A model generated the notes under the pieces. It was not told the origin of the DNA and ran no database searches. It saw only the letters and a list, made by a program, of their open reading frames with translations. From a virus, in IMG/VR virus record IMGVR_UViG_3300047557_002442, positions 1 to 64,000 of that record: a DNA stretch of 64,000 nucleotides. The stretch is one strand, 5' to 3'. The translations under genes were made by a program, and so were the position numbers. This document shows, piece after piece, positions 5,501 through 63,450 of this stretch; positions within the stretch are counted from its first letter, which is position 1; the number at the start of each line of letters is the position of its first letter.

Positions 5501-8500
5501 CTAATTGCTGATGTGAATCTACCTTGATTGACAAGATCATATGTTCCATTTGTTGGCAATGTCAATACAGCCTCACCCCACTTACCAAACCCTGGTTCTA
5601 TAAAGTCTTCCTCAGAATGTAGACTGCTCAATGTAGCTGCATTTGCGTAGTTGAAGCGGGATTGAAGATTCAACGATCTTGATAAAGGTTGCAAGAATGA
5701 ACGAGACTGATCTATCACCGCTGTTGAGTCAGGTGCTGATATCTCAATCTGTAAATAATCTTCAAATTTTTCTACAAAGAATCCATGCTTGAATCTATTC
5801 AATAAAGGGTTCAACGAACTTGGAATCACGAGCTCTGAGGTTTGTTTTTCTAATAAGTTTAACGACGTATAGTACTCAAGATTGTTGATTCGACGTTCTA
5901 ATCTACCAATATCTGCCATAGTGTATCGTCTTGGTAATTCACGGTATTGTGTAGATGTAATAGTATCTGTGACTTGGTAGTCCAACTGCTTGCTTGGGGC
6001 ATTGGTTCCAGTTGCTAGTCTCGTTGTTAAGAAATCGATTTGATTCTTATCCATCACTTGTGGTAATGATGGATACATCGGAACATTAATGATACCAAGT
6101 GTTATTTGATCCACAGTCTCTGGAGGTGGGACTGGTTGTGCTGCAGGTGTACCTCGGATAACTGATATGTTACCCTCCATATCTAAAACAACTCTATCTT
6201 TTCTAGGCAGGTAGTATGTGTAGTCATATTCAAATGCATAATCTGGATATGGGAAATTTTTGGAGTGTGATCCAAACGTCAATGTACTAGAAGGATTGAC
6301 AGTTGCGCCAGCCAATGTTGATGTGATATTAGCAGTTGCTACAGCTCTTGGTCTAAAGTCAATTGAGTTCTCTAATGATAAAACATTCCCATTTGCAGAC
6401 TTGAATACTGGAATCTCAAGAATATTAATGAAGTTATTAGATAAAGAGGTTCTTGGGGTATTGTTTTGTGTTAACTTATATGAGTTAACTGTAAAATACC
6501 CTGTTGCTGTTGGGGATGCCAGAGTAAAACAATCAACATCCACTAGTAGATACTCATCAGGTCCCAACGGTCTACCTGTCTGATGTCTATACAATTGTGC
6601 AAGACCATAATAGTCGTCAGTCTGACCACTATCCACATAGAATGAAGACGTTGCGACAAGGCTTGATGTATTAACGCTTGAATTACCAATATACACCTTA
6701 TTGAGTCTGAACACATCTGGTATACCAAGAGACCATGGACCTCTTATACCTCCTGGATTATCAGCTATACTAATTTTAACAAGTGCATTTCGTTGAACTG
6801 TTTTTTCAATTGCTGTATCGCTCTTCTTTGCATCATATATTATTGTTACTGGTACTAAACTTGATAATGTAACTGTATTTGACGCATTCCCAAAATCAAT
6901 TGTTAGTGTCTGGCCAAGCGAATCAGTATTTGCTCTAACACGATCATCATCCAATGGAATAGGATAGAATGCGCGCAGATGTCTTGCAATTGTTGTATTG
7001 CTTGTTGTTGTAAATGGCCATGGCTTATCAAGAGTCATGTAAGTTGAGTTTGCAACAGATTGTACCTTTGCAAACGTATTTGATGATGCACTTGATCCAT
7101 CCTGTAAATATACAAAATCACCAGCTCTAAAATATGTACTTAAACCTGTACCAGTAATATATGACTGATTGCGTGTTGCTACTGCAGCTGTTACGGTATT
7201 TGTTGATGTTGCGTTAGCTAATGGCGTAACAATCAAGGTACTCTTTTGTGGTGTAGATAAAACAACGCTGTTGCCAAATGGTAAAGTGTCACTTATCGTT
7301 AACGTTAATATACCTAATGTGGAAATGTTAGCTGTTGAATTAGATGTTCTATAAACATATGATCCACCTGCTACGTTACTTACTCCCTTGACTCCAATAT
7401 CGTATACAAGTGTACTTTGACTTGTATCTTTTAAGATAGCAATTTCTTTATCTGTTGTTGGATCAAGTTCTAATATTACATCCGCAATACCATTGTCTGA
7501 TGAGGATGGTCCATCGTAGTATAGTGTTCTCACATCACTAAATGAGGATCCAGCATTCATGTTAATATCAAACAAATATACTCTATATGATGCTGTTGGA
7601 GTCCCTGGTGTGCCTGATTCATGTATAACAGATCTTATTCTTGCTGTACCAATCTTTCTACCAGTTGTCGTGATAGATGTTTGATTTGATGTATAGAATT
7701 TTCTTGCAGTGTTATACAAATCAATGGTATCTGCTGTTTGCGTATTGAAGAATCCAGCATATTCTTGCACTTCTACATATGACCCATAGGACAGTGTTTT
7801 AAATTGCCCTAAATTTGCTTTTGTAGTTCTTGCTCTAGCAATTGGTACAAACGTGTTTTTTTCTGTCTGAAGGCGTTTACCTTTAATATATGCAATACCA
7901 GGATCTACCACAACATTGAAGTTTGTATTGCTCCATGTGGTTTGATCTTTTGTTGCAATATCAAATGGATCTACAACAAAGCTACCATTCGTATCATCTG
8001 TACGACGCTCAAATTCTTTTAATAGAACATTATATGATGTATTTCTATTTTGTTTATATGGTTGACCATCTCTAAAGTCAACTAACGTGAAGAATGAGTT
8101 ATTGGAAACTACGTTAGATTGACTGATTACAGCAAGTGTTGGTGTTAGTTTTAATCTATGAGCACCAGGAGCTGCAAAGTTATAAGACCCAGTTGCATTA
8201 TCAAGCAATGTAGAATCTACATTGGTATTAACAATAGTTTCTGTGGTTGTAAATCCAACAGACACACTGTCAACGTTACTAGAGTATGCATTTACAATTA
8301 TCGTTTGTGGGTCTACCTTTAAGAAATAACCTTTTTGATAGATTGTACCTTCTGTTACACCAAACGCATATGCATTACCAACAGGATTCGCTCCACCACC
8401 TGTATAAGAACTATCTGCAACAGTAACCTGTGCCTTGAATGTTTGTGGTGTTATATCTAGATTTGTTAGTGCTCCACTAGATGTTCTAACTGTTACATAA

Positions 8501-55142: not shown

Positions 55143-55757
55143 CTAGTCGTTGTCAATTATCTTTAATTTTCTTTGTGCTTTTAAATTTCTCGACAACGCG
55201 TAACGGCTGTTGTCTATATCTTTATCATGCTCTGTTGTTTTTGTATATGATGGTACTAAGAATCTCTTCATTGCTTTCTGGAGGTCAAACTTCTGTGCAT
55301 CAAAAATATTTCCTTCAGTATCAAGATGCTTAGTAATTCTACCCAACACCCCATCCAAGAAATCAAACTTCTCTAACATCTTTGCATTAGCAGCATGTAG
55401 TTTGATTCGTTTGATATAATTTTGTGCATCAGTAATGTCAAGAGGCTCAGCTCTTTCTTTTGAATCAACCTTCTCAACAAGAGCAAACAGTTGATCTAAA
55501 ACAATAGCAGCTTTTTCCATCTCATTAACATTTATGTCTTTTGGTAGATCAACAAATAACTTTTGTGCTTGTGGACTTACCTCAAAATGTTTCGTACGGT
55601 ATGTACCAACAGATATTTGATCATTCTCATCTGTCTCAACATCAATACGTTGTTCAATCATTGTCTTAATGATTGCTGTCTTTAGTGATTCGTACTGGCT
55701 TTGAGGTTTCACTCGACCAGTCATTAAGTCTTTAATTATATTTTCTACTGATCTCAT
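55143..55757 (-). CDS. Hypothetical protein
   Basis: TAATG-coupled ORF; YRTKHFEVSP.AQK. Confidence 0.55.
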   Translation of the reverse strand: MRSVENIIKDLMTGRVKPQSQYESLKTAIIKTMIEQRIDVETDENDQISVGTYRTKHFEVSPQAQKLFVDLPKDINVNEMEKAAIVLDQLFALVEKVDSKERAEPLDITDAQNYIKRIKLHAANAKMLEKFDFLDGVLGRITKHLDTEGNIFDAQKFDLQKAMKRFLVPSYTKTTEHDKDIDNSRYALSRNLKAQRKLKIIDND

Positions 55758-56200
55758 TATTGACCTTTCAGAACAGATTTGAGCATCCACTCATGTTTCT
55801 TGTGAGCTTCAATTCTGGCTTGCAAGAAATTTGACAGTCCAATTTGACTATATCTTTCGGCCATATTATAAAGCTCTAACAACTTTGTTTGATAGATGTT
55901 GTTGTTAGCTAACAAATCTCTATACATTGTAATAGGATCAGCTGGCATTGCTGGTGTTTCTGATAAATCAGACAACTCATCAAATCTCTTCAATGTAGAT
56001 GAAGTGTAGGCACCGAGTTGACGCACATGTTCAGCTAATGGATCAACAGAACCATAAACATCTGCATAAAACTCCCCAAAGAATTCATGGTCCTGTGGAA
56101 AATTTCTACCTTCCACATTCCAGTGGTAAACATTCGCCTTAAAATATAATTCAAATGTGGTTGCAAGTAACTTTTGCGTTTGATTAATTAGTTCTTCCAT
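55757..56200 (-). CDS. dps: Dps/ferritin-like protein
   Basis: YHWNVEG..F...HEFF.E.Y......D.LAEH.R.LG; H.KH.WML.S. Confidence 0.9.
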   Translation of the reverse strand: MEELINQTQKLLATTFELYFKANVYHWNVEGRNFPQDHEFFGEFYADVYGSVDPLAEHVRQLGAYTSSTLKRFDELSDLSETPAMPADPITMYRDLLANNNIYQTKLLELYNMAERYSQIGLSNFLQARIEAHKKHEWMLKSVLKGQ

Positions 56201-56619
56201 TATACATCCTTGTTATCTAACGGCCCATTTGTAAGCCATGCATCACAGGTTCTTGAACCTGCACATTTAAAATGAAAGAGTGTGCAGTAACCTAAATTTG
56301 CTAGTTTGACCGTTTCTTCGGCACCACCATCTTCTTTCTCACCCTGCTTTATACCATCTGACATACATTTAATCATTTCATCAGAAACATTAAAGGCAGC
56401 ACAGTTATGACATCTTGCTGTCTTTGCATACTCAACTGGTACATTCCACATCTTCGCTTTTGCCTTCCAAAACTCATTTGATGGTTCCATTGGATTGAGT
56501 GGTCCATATCCATATTCATCTATTGCATGTTGTCTATTTTTAAGATTCACGTGTATATCATATGTTGCTATTGGGCAACTTGTTTTTTTCTCGAAAATGT
56601 ATTGCTTGAATGTCTTCAT
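56200..56619 (-). CDS. Cys-rich protein with capsid-targeting-like N-terminus
   Basis: MKTFKQYIFE; CP.AT; RCHNCAAF; GYC..FHFKCAGSRTCDAW. Confidence 0.7.
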   Translation of the reverse strand: MKTFKQYIFEKKTSCPIATYDIHVNLKNRQHAIDEYGYGPLNPMEPSNEFWKAKAKMWNVPVEYAKTARCHNCAAFNVSDEMIKCMSDGIKQGEKEDGGAEETVKLANLGYCTLFHFKCAGSRTCDAWLTNGPLDNKDV

Positions 56620-58769
56620 TAGCAATTCCACTTTCTTAAGGCTTTATTGATTCTTGAATCTGGATCTTTGGCTGTCTTAGCTGACGTCAATCTTTTCTTC
56701 ATTCCACTCATACGAGCACAGAATGATTTACGGCGCTTAGCTGCTTTACTATCAGGATCTAATTTAGATGGCTTTGTTGTTACAGCCATTGATAGTTTTG
56801 AACCAGGATTCTCTTTACGGTATGAAGCAATTCCTTTACGGTTTAGACCACCTTCTGGATTCTTACCAGCTTTACGCTGCCATGCTGGTGTCTTACCCTC
56901 GTCAAGATCAGCTTCCTCTTTCAAAGCATTGTCGACATAGTCATTAACATGCTTTTGTGCAGCTTCATGACTAATGTTGTGTTGTTTTGCAAGCTTCTTA
57001 GCTACCTGTACTGTTTTATTACCTAGATGTTCGCTACCACCTATCTTTTTATAAGAAGCTACGTGTTTACCTAGATGTTGTTCAATGTCGGCATGCAACT
57101 CTGCCATCTTACCTTCATCTAATAGAAGGTCCTGAATTTGTTCATGCAAGTCAGAATCCATTTCAAAAGCCTTGCCACCAGATACAAACGAATTGACTCT
57201 AGCAAAAGCCCATTGCTGAGCTGTTTGTGTTGTATAATCTATTTTGTTCCAGTCAGCAATGCCTCTTTGGTAGACCTCTGCTAGCACATCATAAGGAACA
57301 CCTGTCTTAAATGACTTGAACTTTAAGGAAGTTTCTGCCGACTCTGAAATAGTTGCATTTTCTACCATTTCAACTATTGCATTGAATTGTTCAAAAGAAA
57401 GGTTTTTATTTTCTTTCTTTTCATCCTTTTTCTTCTCAGGCTCAGGCTTCTTAACTTGTGGTTGGTCAAAGGATACATTCTTCCAGCGCTCAATATTACC
57501 TAACGCTGTTGCTAGGATCTTATGTGAGCGTGATTCCTCAACATCTACCTCTTCTGTCTTTGTACCCCAGTTTTTAGCACCTGCTTTTCTACATTTTACT
57601 AAAGCACCAGAGGCATATGCACTAGGCCAAATCTTGTAACGAGATTTAACTTTATGATAACATGCATCTTTTTCTTCTGTAGCTACGTTGATAGCAGAAC
57701 CGCTTCTTTCTGGATTGGGATCCTGTCTACGTTTACGTTGAGCTGCCGCTGCTCGATCTTCTTTATCCATTGCACGTGCTTTAGCTAAAGGTAAACATTT
57801 TGGTTTACCTTCACCTTCTTCTCTTGCACATTGACCCTTAATGTTACCTTTAGTATCCATTCTTACCCACTTGTCTTGAAACCATTGTCTTATGTTTTCG
57901 TTCAGATCATGGTCCAACTCTTCATGAGCTTTGTCATGTATACCTTTGTGAGTCTTATGAATACTCGTATTCATTTTCTTCAAGTAACTCAAGCGCTTAG
58001 AGCGCTCTGACTCTACCTTTTGTTTATCATATGTTAGCTGTTCTGCAAATACAGCAAACGGCTCATTAACATCTTCCTTGACGGACTTGATGTGGCCTAT
58101 GATCTCATTGGCATGTGGGTGTAATGCTTTTGGTAAACCAGCTTTAAAATGTTCGTGCTCACCAGCTCTTGCATGAGCTCGCATCTTTGTACCAGACATT
58201 CCAGAAACACCTTCAGCATCTGGATCTCTTTCACCTGAGGACACAACCTTGATAGATTTGAAGTTGTAATGGCCTTCTTTGCCGTTATATTGTTTGAGTT
58301 TATCTTCATAATCCTTAGCACGATCACTACCAGCAACCATTACCAAATGTTTGTGTCCAGCATCATGAAGTTTCTTAGCTGCATGTAAGAAGTTGGGCTC
58401 CTCTTTGGAAGATCCGTGAATATTGACCCCATGAGGTTCAGCTACTTTCTTTAAGTAGTTAAGTTTGTGTTTTTGTGGGAGTGGATTACTAGATGTACCT
58501 TCAGAGTGACTTGCAAAAACATGAGCACTACCGTTGTGTTGTTTTGCTGTCTGATGTACTGTATGAATTAGTTTTTCGTGGCCAGTCGTTGGTGGATTGA
58601 ATCTACCAAAAGCCATCACAGCTGTGGATTCTTTTTCTTCTCTAACAAATGCTTTATCTTGGTCATCTTTAGGATTGATAATAATCTCATCCTTATTACC
58701 TGCAGATAGCTTTCTGTTAAGTTTCTTGCCCGCTTGAGGCATCTTTTGTGTCAATTGATCTAATGGCAT
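56619..58769 (-). CDS. HIGH-family nucleotidyltransferase fused to several small phage domains (716 aa)
   Basis: FGRFNPPTTGHEKL; MVAGSDR; RDPDAEGVSGMSGTKMR; later modules QQWAFARVNSF and GKNPEGGLN..RRKSFCARM..W.C. Confidence 0.8.
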   Translation of the reverse strand: MPLDQLTQKMPQAGKKLNRKLSAGNKDEIIINPKDDQDKAFVREEKESTAVMAFGRFNPPTTGHEKLIHTVHQTAKQHNGSAHVFASHSEGTSSNPLPQKHKLNYLKKVAEPHGVNIHGSSKEEPNFLHAAKKLHDAGHKHLVMVAGSDRAKDYEDKLKQYNGKEGHYNFKSIKVVSSGERDPDAEGVSGMSGTKMRAHARAGEHEHFKAGLPKALHPHANEIIGHIKSVKEDVNEPFAVFAEQLTYDKQKVESERSKRLSYLKKMNTSIHKTHKGIHDKAHEELDHDLNENIRQWFQDKWVRMDTKGNIKGQCAREEGEGKPKCLPLAKARAMDKEDRAAAAQRKRRQDPNPERSGSAINVATEEKDACYHKVKSRYKIWPSAYASGALVKCRKAGAKNWGTKTEEVDVEESRSHKILATALGNIERWKNVSFDQPQVKKPEPEKKKDEKKENKNLSFEQFNAIVEMVENATISESAETSLKFKSFKTGVPYDVLAEVYQRGIADWNKIDYTTQTAQQWAFARVNSFVSGGKAFEMDSDLHEQIQDLLLDEGKMAELHADIEQHLGKHVASYKKIGGSEHLGNKTVQVAKKLAKQHNISHEAAQKHVNDYVDNALKEEADLDEGKTPAWQRKAGKNPEGGLNRKGIASYRKENPGSKLSMAVTTKPSKLDPDSKAAKRRKSFCARMSGMKKRLTSAKTAKDPDSRINKALRKWNC

Positions 58770-58823
58770 AGATTTTCCTTTAATTATCAGGTTTGTCGTA
58801 ACCTAACTGATATTATATAAGGT

Positions 58824-58831
58824 TATTTATA
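58824..58831 (-). promoter_or_regulatory. T4 late promoter TATAAATA
   Basis: Exact consensus, intergenic, upstream of the 716-aa gene. Confidence 0.8.
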
Positions 58832-58838
58832 ATATTTA

Positions 58839-59465
58839 TTATTCAGGTTTGTATTTTTTGGTAGATCCGTCAGGCTGCACATGATAGGCATGGAAGTTGA
58901 CGTTTGGGTGTTGTTCTTTCATTTTCAAGAAGTGATGTAAGTTTGTTTTACTATCATCATACATATGAACGGAATGAACATTACCCTTTTTGACATAGTC
59001 TGATATGATTTTTGTTTTTTTGTGTGCAGGTTGTTCATTGCCTGGAATGTTGCCCGCTCTGTGAACATGAATGTTATCTACATCAACACCGTGTTTTTTG
59101 AATGTATCTAAGAATTTGTGTTTGTTGTCAAAGTCAGCACGTGCTGTATTCATGATTACTTTTGAACTCGATCCCACTTTTGATTTGATATTTTGATGAA
59201 TAGCTTTCATCTTGTTCAACATCTTTGGAATAGGTTTTGATTCTTTTGCAAATTTATCAGCTGATCTGAATTCGCTGTAGTCATAACTATGTCCAGATGG
59301 TAGCTTATGGTCATTATACTCTTGATTGGAAAGTTTTTGAACAGTTTGTCCATGTTTATTTTTTACATGGATTTGTGCATTAGTATGAAATAAAGTATCA
59401 TCCACATCAAATACATGTAGACTACCTTTACTTTCTTCTATTAAATAATCTTTGAATGATTTCAT
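58839..59465 (-). CDS. HAD-superfamily phosphatase with capsid-targeting-like N-terminus
   Basis: MKSFKDYLIEE; HVFDVDDTL (motif I); NTAR (II); KK (III); MYDD (IV). Confidence 0.82.
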   Translation of the reverse strand: MKSFKDYLIEESKGSLHVFDVDDTLFHTNAQIHVKNKHGQTVQKLSNQEYNDHKLPSGHSYDYSEFRSADKFAKESKPIPKMLNKMKAIHQNIKSKVGSSSKVIMNTARADFDNKHKFLDTFKKHGVDVDNIHVHRAGNIPGNEQPAHKKTKIISDYVKKGNVHSVHMYDDSKTNLHHFLKMKEQHPNVNFHAYHVQPDGSTKKYKPE

Positions 59466-60772
59466 TAGGTTATCTCTTCCCAAACCATTGCTCCAACAGC
59501 ATCATTACCGTTTGTTGCACCTGTACCTGCAAGGGTAATAATAATGCCATTGTTATTTGCTGCAAATGGATCTCTTTCAAGTTGATATGCAAATAATTGC
59601 TCTCTTGATAGATTAACAGCAGCTCCCCCTGCACCAGCTGATACGTTCACATATCCAACTGTTGCGTCGCGACCTCCTGAAACGGCAGAAGCAGTTATAT
59701 CATATTCAATCGGAGAATCGGTGTCTGCTGAAACCCATGATGCCCCTGTCAATGTTCCGCCTATAATAATTTTGTACCTATAGCTTGTATTATTAGTTAC
59801 ACCAAAGAATTCAACATCTTTTAATATAGCCAATGCATCTTTGAATGAGTCTTTTAATCTAATTGATACTACTGGCGTAAACGTTCCTGCTGTCGGCAAG
59901 TCTTTTGGCGATGTGATTGGTATGCTTATACTTCTTGCTTTACCTTCAAGTTGATATCCACCTTCGGAAACAACTGTGGAACAAATTTGTTTTATCTTAG
60001 AAGTAGATACTGTAGTACCTGTATTTTCTATTTCGTATCGGATAGGAAGGATAGCCGTGGTCATGTAGGTTGTTGTGTTTAAATTATCGTTGTGGAATAT
60101 ATGTGCTGGTATCATCAAACCATCAACAACAAACCCACATCGTACATCTCCTACACCAAGCCACTCAACATCAATCCAAAAAATATTAGATTTGGTAATA
60201 TCTAAATCACCACGATCAGGGTGTGCTGATTGTGAAGCACCGCCTGTACCATCAAACTTATCTACGTTCCAGTCAGCCTGGGCAACTCGTGTCTCTACTA
60301 CCGTTCCTGACGTATATGTTCTAAGTACAAGATAATTTCCTGTACCATCGTTCTCAAAAAATATCCCATTTTGTGTATTAAAATATCCAACACGTTGTCT
60401 CAGGTTAGCTTTTTGAGCAGTCATTACAAATGTGTTCATAATGAGCAATGATTTACCAGGTTGATATGCAAAAACTCTTTTACTTTCACGATAACACCTA
60501 TCGCCAGATGTTGAGCCTACATTCATATCGATTGCAGATTCGTTCGTTTGGTATTGGGTGTTTGCTGTTCCACTCGTGCTTGTTATGAACTTACCATTAT
60601 CTTGGTATCGATGGAAAGAATCAAATAATGTCACTGGATTAGAAACTCTCAGACGACCAAATGCATCAGTGGCTGTGCCAGAAGCAGTAAATCTGCTACT
60701 AAGCATATTCACTTCGTAGATGGTTTTACCATCTGCTAGATATCTTGACTGGTCTGTTCTAAATTGTGCCAT
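59465..60772 (-). CDS. Conserved beta-rich phage protein (likely virion)
   Basis: DAFGRLRVS.P.TLFD; YQPGKS; WNVD.FDG.G; EWLGVG.VR.GF; LPIRYEI; IC.TV.SEGG. Confidence 0.7.
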   Translation of the reverse strand: MAQFRTDQSRYLADGKTIYEVNMLSSRFTASGTATDAFGRLRVSNPVTLFDSFHRYQDNGKFITSTSGTANTQYQTNESAIDMNVGSTSGDRCYRESKRVFAYQPGKSLLIMNTFVMTAQKANLRQRVGYFNTQNGIFFENDGTGNYLVLRTYTSGTVVETRVAQADWNVDKFDGTGGASQSAHPDRGDLDITKSNIFWIDVEWLGVGDVRCGFVVDGLMIPAHIFHNDNLNTTTYMTTAILPIRYEIENTGTTVSTSKIKQICSTVVSEGGYQLEGKARSISIPITSPKDLPTAGTFTPVVSIRLKDSFKDALAILKDVEFFGVTNNTSYRYKIIIGGTLTGASWVSADTDSPIEYDITASAVSGGRDATVGYVNVSAGAGGAAVNLSREQLFAYQLERDPFAANNNGIIITLAGTGATNGNDAVGAMVWEEIT

Positions 60773-61965
60773 TATTCACTTCTTGCTAAAAAGTTTGCTC
60801 TACTGAATTCTTTTCTATCAACTAGTTTAGTTGGTCTATTATTTCTTACAGCGACAAACCCTTCTGGTTTTGCCTTTTGTCCGTTGATATGGTGTTCAAA
60901 CTTCTGACTGTGGGACATTGCTTTGACCAAAACATCTTTTGCATCCGTCAAATGCTTATGCATTTGCAGAACATTATGAAAATGTTCTTTATTTTTATCA
61001 ACGTGTTGTGCATGCTGATCATGCTCACTCTTAACCTTACTTATGCTCTTTTCAGTTTTGAGCTTGCCCATCTGTTTTGTGAAATGATCCTTTAGATGAT
61101 CCTTATATCCTTCCACAGAAGGCTCCTTGCCCGTCTTAACCGTTGAATTAATATAGGTTTTTAGGTGTGTCGTATGTGGTTCAGCAGATTTGAATGTGTC
61201 CGGATGAGCTGTATTAAAGTGATGAACGGCCTTATTAAGGTGATGTTCAAACTTTTGTTGTGCTTCCTTCGGATAATGCGCCTTAGACATATCGTGTTCT
61301 GTCGAAATTACATGTACATCCGGGTGACTATTGAAGTGAGACGTGTTGGCATTGTATTTTGCCTTCATGTTTGACAGGTCATCACCATGATATGATGTGT
61401 GAACAGCGACTCCAATCTTAGAATTTGTGATTTTTTGACCTTCATCGCTATGGGCATGTGTTGAGTAGCTGATGACATTTGGCTTAAAATGGTATTTTCC
61501 ACCTTTATGCTCGACGTCTCCATGTGGATTTGCTTCACTCTTCACACCTGAGTGCATGATATCCCCTTGAAAAACACCAGTTTTTGGTGTTGACTTTGGT
61601 AAATGCTCGAGAGCCGTCTTCAATTTTTGTGCTAGACCAGGTGCATGACCGTGATTTTTGTCAATATCTTCATGTGTATAGTTGATTTTTGGTGTTTTAT
61701 TGAATACTGACTTAGACCCAACAAAGAATTTTCCTGTTTTTGGATGATGACCAAAGACAATTGATGGGGATCCATCATATTTTGTGCTAACAGACGTGCT
61801 ATTTTTCTTGCCTGTTAACTGATGGTGGACATCAGCAAGGTTATGATAGGCATGGCTGAAGCCTTTATCACCAGCATTCAGTACGTGATCTTCTGCATGT
61901 TCGAGATGAGTCAGCTTTGATTCGTCAGAAGTAGCCTCAGTTATAAATGTCGAAAAGGATTTCAT
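60772..61965 (-). CDS. DUF6267-like protein with RNA-ligase (covalent nucleotidyltransferase) motifs and capsid-targeting-like N-terminus
   Basis: MKSFSTFITE; TKYDGSP; VGSKS; VFQGD; PEGFVAV......KLV. Confidence 0.7.
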   Translation of the reverse strand: MKSFSTFITEATSDESKLTHLEHAEDHVLNAGDKGFSHAYHNLADVHHQLTGKKNSTSVSTKYDGSPSIVFGHHPKTGKFFVGSKSVFNKTPKINYTHEDIDKNHGHAPGLAQKLKTALEHLPKSTPKTGVFQGDIMHSGVKSEANPHGDVEHKGGKYHFKPNVISYSTHAHSDEGQKITNSKIGVAVHTSYHGDDLSNMKAKYNANTSHFNSHPDVHVISTEHDMSKAHYPKEAQQKFEHHLNKAVHHFNTAHPDTFKSAEPHTTHLKTYINSTVKTGKEPSVEGYKDHLKDHFTKQMGKLKTEKSISKVKSEHDQHAQHVDKNKEHFHNVLQMHKHLTDAKDVLVKAMSHSQKFEHHINGQKAKPEGFVAVRNNRPTKLVDRKEFSRANFLARSE

Positions 61966-61989
61966 AGGGGTTCTCTTAATTATTCTGCT

Positions 61990-61997
61990 TATTTATG
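61990..61997 (-). promoter_or_regulatory. Late promoter-like CATAAATA
   Basis: Intergenic, ~25 nt upstream of the ATG at 61965. Confidence 0.65.
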
Positions 61998-63419
61998 TTA
62001 ATACAACTTACCAAACGGACCAAACTTATCACCCTTCTTCATAGCCAAGAAAGTCATGTCGGTCATGAAGGACTCCATCTTCTCCTTAGGTAAAGATAAT
62101 ATAGAATTCAAGAACGTAAGTTGCATTAACTTTGCTGTTGCAACGTGACGATCTTTACCATTAAGTACGGCAATCATGTTCTTCACAAATTCATCCACTG
62201 TTGCAACGTTTGTCTTTGTCAAAGTGCTGACACTAATCTTACTAAACATCTGTTTATAGAGATTTTTCTTCTTCTCAAACTCTTCAGCTGTCTTTGGATA
62301 ATTCTTATGATTGTTATCAAATGTGAACCCGTATTCTCTACAAAGTGTCAGTACCATGTCAACAGGAGCTTTACCAATACGAGCTGCAGACGCTTCTTTC
62401 ATTGTTGGTTCGAATTTGAGGTTTGATGCAGCAACAGAATCGTTTCCCTTTATTTGGAAGTTGAATGTTCCTTGATCTCCACCAAACACAACAATCTTAG
62501 TTTCCTGGTTCTGGAATGATGTTGGACTTCTCAATGATAGGTCAATCCTCATTTCTGTTACAGAGAAGTTATAGTTTTTCGTATCGACAAAGTCTCCATC
62601 ATTGACATTGACTTCTTCATACTGTGCTTGTTGTCCTGATACTTTCTTCAAGGACACACCAATCACTCGTCGTTGTTTAAACATAGTACGTAGTGTACTA
62701 TTCAGTTCTGTAAGTGTTTGAGACTTGCCACCTGACGTTACTTTGTCAAGATCTCTCATTACGGATGCAACATCTTTGATCAACCAAATGTCTGCTGGAT
62801 CCCATGTGTCCTTTTGAGATATACCATACTTACTTTTAACAAGATCTGTTATATACTTCATAAACCCACCTTCACGATTGAAAACAGTGAATTGTGGATT
62901 TGAGTATTCTTGTAGCATTCTTTGTTGTTGAAGGAAGTAGATCTTCACCCACTCTTCAGTAATCTCAGGATATATCTCTTGAAGCTCAAAGTACTTTGGA
63001 TCTGTGATAATATCTTGGTACTGTGAGTACTTCATATTATCTTTCATGGCTCGTTTCATGATCCATGCAGATCCAAGTTCTTGTTTCCTTGTTGTAGTAG
63101 CATCAGCCCCAACCCCACCCGCTGTTTTCTTTCGGGATAGTTGGAACTTGATTTTGTAGCCATTCACGACAGCATAGAATGCTTCAGCTGTAGCCTGGCT
63201 GTTAGGAAGATCTTTGTTGATCTTTTTGATATGTTCTAAGTTTGTTTCACTACACTTAATGACCCATTGCTTGCTTTTTGTTCTATCCCAAAAGGCATCT
63301 CCCAAGAATCCTTCATTAGGACTTGGGAGTTTTGTTAGCATTGTTGTCAAAGGACTTCTTAGGTCCGATGGTGCATGACTTAGTGTTGCATCTTTATAAA
63401 GTGAGAAGTTTGTTGCCAT
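61998..63419 (-). CDS. Hypothetical protein, possible restriction-endonuclease-like fold
   Basis: T..QE; D.W.PADIW; IGVSLKK. Confidence 0.55.
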   Translation of the reverse strand: MATNFSLYKDATLSHAPSDLRSPLTTMLTKLPSPNEGFLGDAFWDRTKSKQWVIKCSETNLEHIKKINKDLPNSQATAEAFYAVVNGYKIKFQLSRKKTAGGVGADATTTRKQELGSAWIMKRAMKDNMKYSQYQDIITDPKYFELQEIYPEITEEWVKIYFLQQQRMLQEYSNPQFTVFNREGGFMKYITDLVKSKYGISQKDTWDPADIWLIKDVASVMRDLDKVTSGGKSQTLTELNSTLRTMFKQRRVIGVSLKKVSGQQAQYEEVNVNDGDFVDTKNYNFSVTEMRIDLSLRSPTSFQNQETKIVVFGGDQGTFNFQIKGNDSVAASNLKFEPTMKEASAARIGKAPVDMVLTLCREYGFTFDNNHKNYPKTAEEFEKKKNLYKQMFSKISVSTLTKTNVATVDEFVKNMIAVLNGKDRHVATAKLMQLTFLNSILSLPKEKMESFMTDMTFLAMKKGDKFGPFGKLY

Positions 63420-63442: not shown

Positions 63443-63450
63443 TATTTATA
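63443..63450 (-). promoter_or_regulatory. T4 late promoter TATAAATA
   Basis: Exact consensus 23 nt upstream of the ATG at 63419. Confidence 0.8.

Follow-up and report, generated by a model that had tools for sequence, protein, structure and literature searches.

The DNA analyzed here (the window) comprises positions 1 to 64,000 of a 101-kb IMG/VR contig (record IMGVR_UViG_3300047557_002442, completeness estimate 62%). The contig belongs to an uncultured T4-like marine myovirus, and the cultured phages closest to it are Methylophilales phage Melnitz and the Kyanoviridae cyanomyoviruses. A 397-amino-acid (aa) protein of the DUF6267 family encoded in the window is strongly predicted to have the covalent-nucleotidyltransferase (ligase) superfamily fold, and the comparison of related viral loci showed that the true conserved unit is composed of this ligase-like protein and a nucleotidyltransferase with the HIGH signature. 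An earlier reading of the sequence (the original prediction) had proposed a late-expressed, virion-packaged repair kit made of an Rnl1-like RNA ligase, a Pnkp-like phosphatase of the HAD type and the nucleotidyltransferase. The open reading frames (ORFs), the ligase motifs, the DVDDT motif of the HAD protein and the HIGH nucleotidyltransferase on which this reading was built were all recovered on the minus strand; a T4-style combination of ligase, phosphatase and kinase was not found to be conserved.

Predicted fold of the DUF6267 protein

The structure of the 397-aa protein was modeled with AlphaFold2 (AF2) from an alignment of 79 DUF6267 homologues with 33-64% identity, and this model was used throughout, while a single-sequence model with a predicted local distance difference test score (pLDDT) of 43 was discarded. 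The alignment-based model had a pLDDT of 95 and a predicted template modeling score of 0.92, with residues 1-12 alone having pLDDT below 50. An exhaustive structural comparison (VIA) of this model with 48,161 chains returned over 20 ligases of RNA or DNA, with Z scores of 9.1-5.6 and 146-203 aligned residues. Eight of the top 11 matches were ligases, each acting on RNA or tRNA, and the remaining three were short helical matches. The ligase matches included:

Naegleria gruberi Rnl (5cot), Z 9.1, 185 aligned residues
T. brucei REL1 (1xdn), Z 8.4, 195 aligned residues
fungal Trl1, Z 7.9, 203 aligned residues
T4 Rnl2 (1s68/2hvq), Z 7.8/7.3, 172/185 aligned residues
T4 Rnl1, Z 7.2, 184 aligned residues
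archaeal Rnl3, Z 6.9, 192 aligned residues
DNA ligases, Z 6.7-5.6, 146-196 aligned residues

Ligases also headed the list obtained with Foldseek against the PDB, yet with E-values of 0.07 or weaker, and in the viral library BFVD the remote annotated matches beyond the protein's own family (from rank 25 on, E at least 0.016) were mostly RNA ligases. In the AF2 model the chain stops one helix past motif V, and therefore the OB domain and motif VI are absent, while a five-helix bundle (residues 233-350, about 120 residues) interrupts the domain between motifs IIIa and IV.

The motifs of the 397-aa protein are located at residues 61-67 (TKYDGSP), 82-86 (VGSKS), 131-135 (VFQGD) and 368-373 (EGFVAV), and the putative lysine of motif V is K380, within KLVDRKEF. 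In the 79-homologue alignment, K62, D64, G65, K85, Q133, G134, D135, E368, G369, K380, and R384 were at least 90% conserved, which indicates that the quoted motifs exceed chance; K62, D64, and G65 constitute the KxDG of motif I with its nucleotide-accepting lysine. When the family was compared with known ligases using hhalign, EGFVAV..K380 was aligned to EGYVAV..K240 of T4 Rnl1, and the QGD of DUF6267 to motif III of gp30, both with non-significant scores. The Pfam model RNA_lig_T4_1 (PF09511) matched one of the 79 DUF6267 members (E 0.023) and did not match the window protein, the DNA ligase model PF01068 matched neither the window protein nor the DUF6267 family members, and megablast against phage genomes gave no match. 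Hence, of the proposed Rnl1-like identity the ligase-superfamily fold stands, as predicted by AF2 and VIA, while the Rnl1-specific part does not, given the higher scores of Rnl5/Rnl2-type enzymes, the single RNA_lig_T4_1 match, and the inserted helical domain.

These data suggest that DUF6267 is a new family of the ligase superfamily, whose modeled fold and architecture are closest to those of ATP-dependent RNA ligases. With the Rnl5/Rnl2-type RNA ligases (NgrRnl, TbREL1, and T4 Rnl2; Z 9.1, 8.4, and 7.8 over 172-195 aligned residues) it shares the fold, the KxDG lysine, the apparent EG of motif IV, the apparent motif V lysine and the lack of an OB domain. It differs from them in having no detectable sequence homology, a helical insertion of about 120 residues, QGD as motif III, Arg at position +4 in motif V, an obligatory HIGH-transferase partner and an N-terminal capsid-targeting-like leader. 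The superfamily fold (Z 7.2) and the EGFVAV..K/EGYVAV..K alignment are shared with T4 Rnl1 (gp63), which together with Pnkp (PseT) repairs tRNA anticodon breaks, and a HAD protein with a DxDxT motif is encoded nearby. On the other hand, DUF6267 falls outside RNA_lig_T4_1, and its helical bundle is placed before motif IV, while the all-helical domain of Rnl1, which confers tRNA specificity, is C-terminal, after motif V.

The HIGH nucleotidyltransferase as the conserved partner

The DUF6267 gene and its partner are located in the following block of the window:

61998-63419, minus strand: 473-aa ORF, function unassigned
60772-61965, minus strand: 397-aa DUF6267 ligase-like protein (Pfam E 8e-105; AF2 model, structural comparison, motifs)
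61936-61965, minus strand: leader MKSFSTFITE of the 397-aa protein, T4 capsid-targeting-like, with an I-x-E cleavage-type site
59465-60772, minus strand: 435-aa virion structural protein (phrog_1645, E 4e-119)
58839-59465, minus strand: HAD phosphatase-type protein, 208 aa from the ATG, with leader MKSFKDYLIE (phrog_415, E 6e-5; HAD motifs)
56619-58769, minus strand: 716-aa HIGH/ISxTxxR nucleotidyltransferase with DUF5824 and DUF6321 (phrog_3041, E 1e-61; phrog_395, E 7e-35; Pfam; motifs)
56200-56619, minus strand: 139-aa Cys-containing protein with leader MKTFKQYIFE, a recurrent member of the block
55757-56200, minus strand: 147-aa Dps/ferritin-like protein (Pfam Ferritin, E 2e-20)

Gene linkage was analyzed in 80 related viral loci, which were found with a single protein query, and the 41 loci with at least 4 kb of downstream sequence were taken as informative. 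In all 41 a HIGH domain was encoded downstream of DUF6267 in the same orientation, and the gap between the two had a median of 812 nt. Direct fusions of DUF6267 to the transferase, with linkers of 15-25 aa, were found among 150 family representatives in 37 cases, and 46 of the 150 were at least 550 aa long; PHROG 455 and a 591-aa protein of S-PM2 are also ligase-transferase fusions. The pair was observed in cyanophages, Methylophilales phage Melnitz, and Stenotrophomonas phage DLP6 as well.

The HIGH domain spans residues ~44-260 of the 716-aa protein and contains the motifs FGRFNPPTTGH (residues 54-64, with TTGH at 61-64) and GMSGTKMR (residues 190-197, with SGTKMR at 192-197), while the small basic modules DUF5824 and DUF6321 are located C-terminally of it. 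The two matching PHROG families are labelled "cytidyltransferase". For Pfam CTP_transf_like the protein scored below the cut-off (17.5 vs. 21) and its homologues scored above it. Judged from these motifs and matches, the 716-aa protein belongs to the HIGH-signature nucleotidyltransferases (CTP_transf_like clan). Among PDB sequences, the best match of the transferase profile was MJ0951, a TmcAL-like protein (E 3e-4), followed by weak matches to PPAT, NadR, and archaeal NMNAT (E 0.01-0.2), and TIGR01526 was matched with an E-value of 0.008.

Several other features of the transferase were observed. Residues 1-45 of the 716-aa protein form a long basic leader containing DEIIINP, and its relatives have either a short capsid-targeting-like leader (MDFKQFITEA...) or a (D/E)-I-x-[IVL]-N-P leader, with a similar NVTINP in S-SZBM1_138; the (D/E)-I-x-[IVL]-N-P leader might serve as another type of signal for targeting or processing. 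The C-terminal modules (DUF5824, DUF6321, and a WPSAYASGALVKCRKAG motif; 56619-57900, minus strand) are in relatives separate small proteins with capsid-targeting-like leaders of their own (a stand-alone module is encoded at 5590-5884 of locus L008, and an example leader is MLTFKEFILES), and an internal LSFEQFNAIVE is located at residues 457-467 of the 716-aa protein, which may have arisen by fusion of cargo modules or may be a chain of them that is processed by a protease. In the ESM Atlas, a viral cluster of 137 members has the HIGH transferase domain fused to a Zeta_toxin/AAA_33 P-loop kinase, which could be the missing RNA-repair kinase or a NadR-like arrangement. A Pol-beta-type NTP_transf_2 protein, S-CREM2 gp156 (locus L108, 7013-7726), is encoded two genes 3' of the cytidylyltransferase and is a virion protein by published mass spectrometry (MS), and a DUF6267 representative of 1145 aa (P0178) is fused to both a HIGH domain and an NTP_transf_2 domain.

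The HAD protein and the proposed repair kit

The HAD motifs I-IV (DxDxT, S/T, K, DD) are complete in the 208-aa protein, with DVDDT at residues 20-24 and the motifs II-IV supplied by MNTAR, K150, and YDDS. Residues D20, D22, T24, T107, K150, D170, and D171 were invariant in 36 HAD sequences. The resemblance to the phosphatase of T4 Pnkp, which the original prediction had proposed, was confined to the generic DxDxT motif: BLASTP against T4 PseT gave an E-value of 32, and hhalign aligned 17 columns, covering motif I alone, with a probability of 24%. The broadest link to Pnkp, and the sole hint beyond motif I, was the match to phrog_415, annotated as "polynucleotide kinase" (E 6e-5). In the profile search of the PDB, HAD structures were absent from the matches with useful E-values, and in the ESM Atlas only viral unknowns with a weak DUF2608/Acid_phosphat_B signal were matched. 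Unlike T4 Pnkp, the HAD protein of the window has no kinase domain.

The conserved linkage of the three genes, which the original prediction expected in relatives, was not observed. HAD was encoded near DUF6267 in two of the 41 informative loci, and DUF6267 near HAD in two of 15 HAD-centred loci. Where the two are close, HAD is usually the next gene, and there is a single fused HAD-DUF6267 protein (P0262). In other lineages HAD is located, as read from the ORF order, among apparent neck, terminase, sheath, and portal genes, far from DUF6267. By its sequence and gene neighborhoods, the HAD protein is thus best regarded as independent, sporadically linked accessory cargo rather than as a counterpart of Pnkp. 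The absence of a P-loop 5'-kinase, noted before for the window, extends to the whole 101-kb contig, in which no AAA_33 or Zeta_toxin P-loop kinase was found, and relatives showed only generic or unlinked P-loops. Because the 5'-kinase is absent from the contig, a heal-and-seal pathway is not reconstituted.

A different arrangement was observed in locus L092 (5712-6886), where the DUF6267 gene is divided between two ORFs, one of 143 aa with the leader and one of 247 aa. The split gene is followed by three more leader-bearing genes, encoding a 371-aa unknown protein, a HAD protein, and a 596-aa transferase.

Leaders, promoter-like elements and probable packaging

Three proteins of the block begin with a short leader: MKSFSTFITEA in the 397-aa protein, MKSFKDYLIEE in the HAD protein and MKTFKQYIFEK in the 139-aa protein. 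The first two had been noticed before as capsid-targeting-like, and indeed they resemble the start of T4 ipII/ipIII (MKTYQEFIAEA); the third extends this observation, and all three follow the pattern MK[ST]F..[FY][IL].E. The scan of the 101-kb contig in six frames for such starts (MK[STAE][FY]..E-type, at ATG codons with at least 60 aa downstream) found those three only. In the 80 related loci, a relaxed pattern was present in 94 of 2,057 ORFs, all 94 on the coding strand, and 68 of these were DUF6267 homologues, so that 68 of the 80 homologues have the leader. The DUF6267 proteins of Melnitz (host OM43) and DLP6 both bear the leader, which in the AF2 model of the window protein is disordered. 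The DUF6267 homologues of cyanophages have no leader and start at a conserved HLEH motif.

A "cytidylyltransferase/NMNAT-like" protein was detected by MS in virions of S-SZBM1, S-CREM2, S-SCSM1, and S-CBWM1 (PMC9146016, PMC10665884, PMC9602691). The virion transferases of S-CREM2 (gp154, MKNFSSFLTEA) and S-SZBM1 (S-SZBM1_140, MRFRQFIIEA) begin with the leader, which ties it empirically to virion presence in this group of phages. The HIGH domains of S-SZBM1_140, S-CREM2 gp154, and S-SCSM1 ORF91 are homologous to that of the window transferase. The transferase gene adjoins DUF6267 in S-SZBM1, S-CAM9, and possibly S-SCSM1, while in S-CREM2 the two genes are ~65 kb apart; the window version differs by its length of 716 aa, the extra basic C-terminal modules, and the DEIIINP leader. 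The S-CREM2 virion protein gp160 was also considered as a short DUF6267 protein and rejected, as it had no Pfam match and the real homologue is encoded at 58914-59762. A gp21-type protease (PF03420) was found in four of five relatives searched, including all three with completeness of at least 90%.

The promoter-like elements in this part of the window are:

61990..61997, minus strand: CATAAATA, T4-late-promoter-like, 24 nt upstream of the DUF6267 start, one mismatch to TATAAATA
58824..58831, minus strand: exact TATAAATA, 54 nt upstream of the 716-aa gene
63443-63450: exact TATAAATA, 23 nt upstream of the 473-aa gene

Of the two late promoter elements named in the original prediction, the one at 58824 is therefore exact and the one at 61990 is a near match. 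The ligase-like, 435-aa structural, and HAD genes are coupled by TAATG stop/start overlaps. Scans for sigma-70 promoters and for terminators showed no enrichment.

The block thus resembles the genes of the T4 internal proteins IPI/IPII/IPIII and Alt in three respects, which are a leader of ~10 residues (MK[ST][FY]..[FY][IL].E) ending with (I/L)-x-E, a late-type promoter, and the presence of a gp21-type protease in the lineage. It differs from them in that the cargo would be enzymes unrelated to the IPs or Alt, and in that packaging is inferred for this phage. The late expression and packaging proposed originally are supported by the operon with a structural gene, the conserved leaders, and the virion-detected transferase homologues; packaging of the ligase-like protein of the window itself is plausible by extension. 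By these features the enzymes look late-made and packaged, which is not known of T4 Rnl1 and Pnkp.

Possible functions of the pair

The explanation that we prefer, and to which we give about an even chance, is that the block is a cargo island with the ligase-fold DUF6267 protein and the HIGH transferase as its core, whose leader-bearing products are packaged and injected, and which acts on polynucleotide 5'-phosphate ends. The genes of the leader-bearing ligase-like, HAD, and 139-aa proteins would be transcribed from late-type promoters along with a virion structural gene. Their products would enter the prohead, lose the leader to a gp21-type protease that cuts behind its Glu, and be injected together with the phage DNA. 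The prohead loading and injection are probable because the leaders resemble those of T4 IPs and the late-type promoters are shared with a structural gene. The ligase-like enzyme would then self-adenylylate on Lys62 and seal or adenylylate 5'-phosphate ends, more likely of RNA than of DNA, while its partner transferase would work on the same substrate or provide the nucleotide cofactor. The catalytic activity, the substrate, and any anti-defence role of the ligase-like protein are inferences.

Several observations weigh against this explanation. Motif III is QGD, with Asp where Glu is usual, and the second lysine of motif V is absent, as the original prediction had already suspected, with the invariant-like R384 located four residues past K380. 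No ligase was matched when PDB sequences were searched with DUF6267, either by phmmer or with a profile by hmmsearch, hhalign of DUF6267 with T4 Rnl2 gave no match, and the structural Z scores of 7-9 are only moderate. Ends of the type made by anticodon nucleases would have neither a kinase nor a cyclic phosphodiesterase to heal them. As for packaging, the 716-aa transferase has no IP-type leader, and a gp21-type prohead protease was not found on the window's 62%-complete contig, which is too incomplete to tell. In addition, DUF6267 is not in the published virion lists of S-SZBM1 or S-CREM2, where both homologues are leaderless, and packaging therefore looks lineage-variable. The late-promoter octamer was not enriched across the window (three observed, 6.5 expected), so that the late-promoter reading rests on the position of the elements and their coupling to the structural gene.

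The original proposal, in which an injected T4-style tRNA repair kit counters anticodon nucleases before phage expression, with HAD healing the 3'-phosphate and the ligase sealing, is unlikely in our view. The nearest folds are those of RNA ligases, including the tRNA ligases Trl1 and T4 Rnl1, the leader is found on both the HAD and the ligase-like protein, and the weak phrog_415 match, the occurrence of HAD as the next gene and the fused P0262 would all agree with it, as would, as a lead only, the fusion between the transferase domain and a Zeta_toxin/AAA_33 P-loop kinase seen in a separate viral cluster. It is opposed by the rare linkage of HAD from either side (2/41 and 2/15 loci), its location elsewhere among apparent neck and tail genes distant from DUF6267, the HAD-PseT alignment limited to motif I, and the lack of a P-loop kinase both on the contig and linked in relatives. 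Alternatively, DUF6267 could be the DNA ligase that marine T4-like phages seem to be missing, and would seal Okazaki fragments or nicks in the phage genome. PF01068 and PF01653 DNA ligases were not found in five relatives, nor PF01068 in two cyanophages, and gp30 is one of the quasi-core genes for which absence from at least one marine cyanophage was reported (PMC2993671). The cyanophage DUF6267 gene is leaderless and located between those of the helicase and the primase. Because relatives are without an ATP- or NAD-dependent DNA ligase, this role stays alive. We give it little weight, however, as the protein lacks the OB domain and motif VI, which are present in all known ATP-dependent DNA ligases, and as DNA ligases scored below RNA ligases in the structural comparison. 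Moreover, DLP6 holds a gp30-type DNA ligase alongside the DUF6267-transferase pair, and a leader, a late-type promoter and an obligatory HIGH-transferase partner would be unexpected for a replicative ligase. Rnl1 and Rnl2 were absent from all eight DUF6267 phages compared, while T4 has both and no DUF6267, in what is a small sample. The evidence leans, tentatively, toward RNA rather than DNA as the substrate.

The pair could also act on small-molecule nucleotides, for example in the synthesis of NAD+ or dinucleoside polyphosphates upon injection, a role which cyanophage papers proposed for the virion protein that they term NMNAT-like. Ligases and HIGH transferases both form 5'-5' adenylate pyrophosphate linkages, the direct fusions imply one pathway, and the weak matches of the transferase profile to NadR, archaeal NMNAT, PPAT, and TIGR01526 point in the same direction. 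We nevertheless consider this possibility improbable: the subfamily assignments of the transferase were all below significance, with the tRNA-acting TmcAL-like protein as the best of them, neither nicotinamide phosphoribosyltransferase nor any other partner for NAD salvage was found among the block genes examined, and enzymes with a ligase fold are not known to serve as dedicated small-molecule synthases.

If these enzymes are indeed injected, they would extend to nucleic-acid ligation the idea of pre-packaged takeover or counter-defence proteins known from T4 Alt and IPI*. A broader proposal, which is possible but which we consider rather unlikely, is that DUF6267 and the HIGH transferase form an unrecognised, ocean-wide polynucleotide (RNA) end-joining or end-modifying system of T4-like marine and soil phages, preloaded into the capsid in many lineages and acting before phage expression. 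Such a system could reverse RNA cleavage by host defences, or modify the ends of host or phage RNAs. The association of a ligase fold with a HIGH transferase opens two conserved "hypothetical" genes of the myoviruses that dominate the ocean to biochemical tests, and offers a reason why a "cytidylyltransferase" recurs in cyanophage virion proteomes.

Distribution of DUF6267 and other members of the block

The DUF6267 family is very abundant: when proteins are clustered at 90% identity, at least 3,469 clusters match it, and at the 50% level at least 2,125 representatives do. Among the 469 phage records that matched it, 454 were cyanophages. Together with its HIGH partner it was found in every cyanomyovirus genome checked, and the pair is widespread among other T4-like phages of marine and soil origin. 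DUF6267 was named in no paper of the literature library searched, and searches pairing RNA repair with cytidylyltransferase returned nothing.

The Dps gene follows the HIGH nucleotidyltransferase in 26 of 27 loci with enough flanking sequence, and it therefore seems to be a member of the same conserved block; the Dps/ferritin-like protein of the window has no leader. The 139-aa protein has several conserved-looking cysteines, and in many of the related loci it is again encoded 3' of the transferase and Dps. Primase, NrdA, and NrdB are encoded farther downstream of the block, and cyanophage S-SZBM1 has the same neighborhood. The ligase-like and HAD proteins are rich in histidine (11.3% and 9.1%, respectively; family median of the former 6.3%, range 1.2-14.2%), compared with 0.8-0.9% in the flanking structural proteins.

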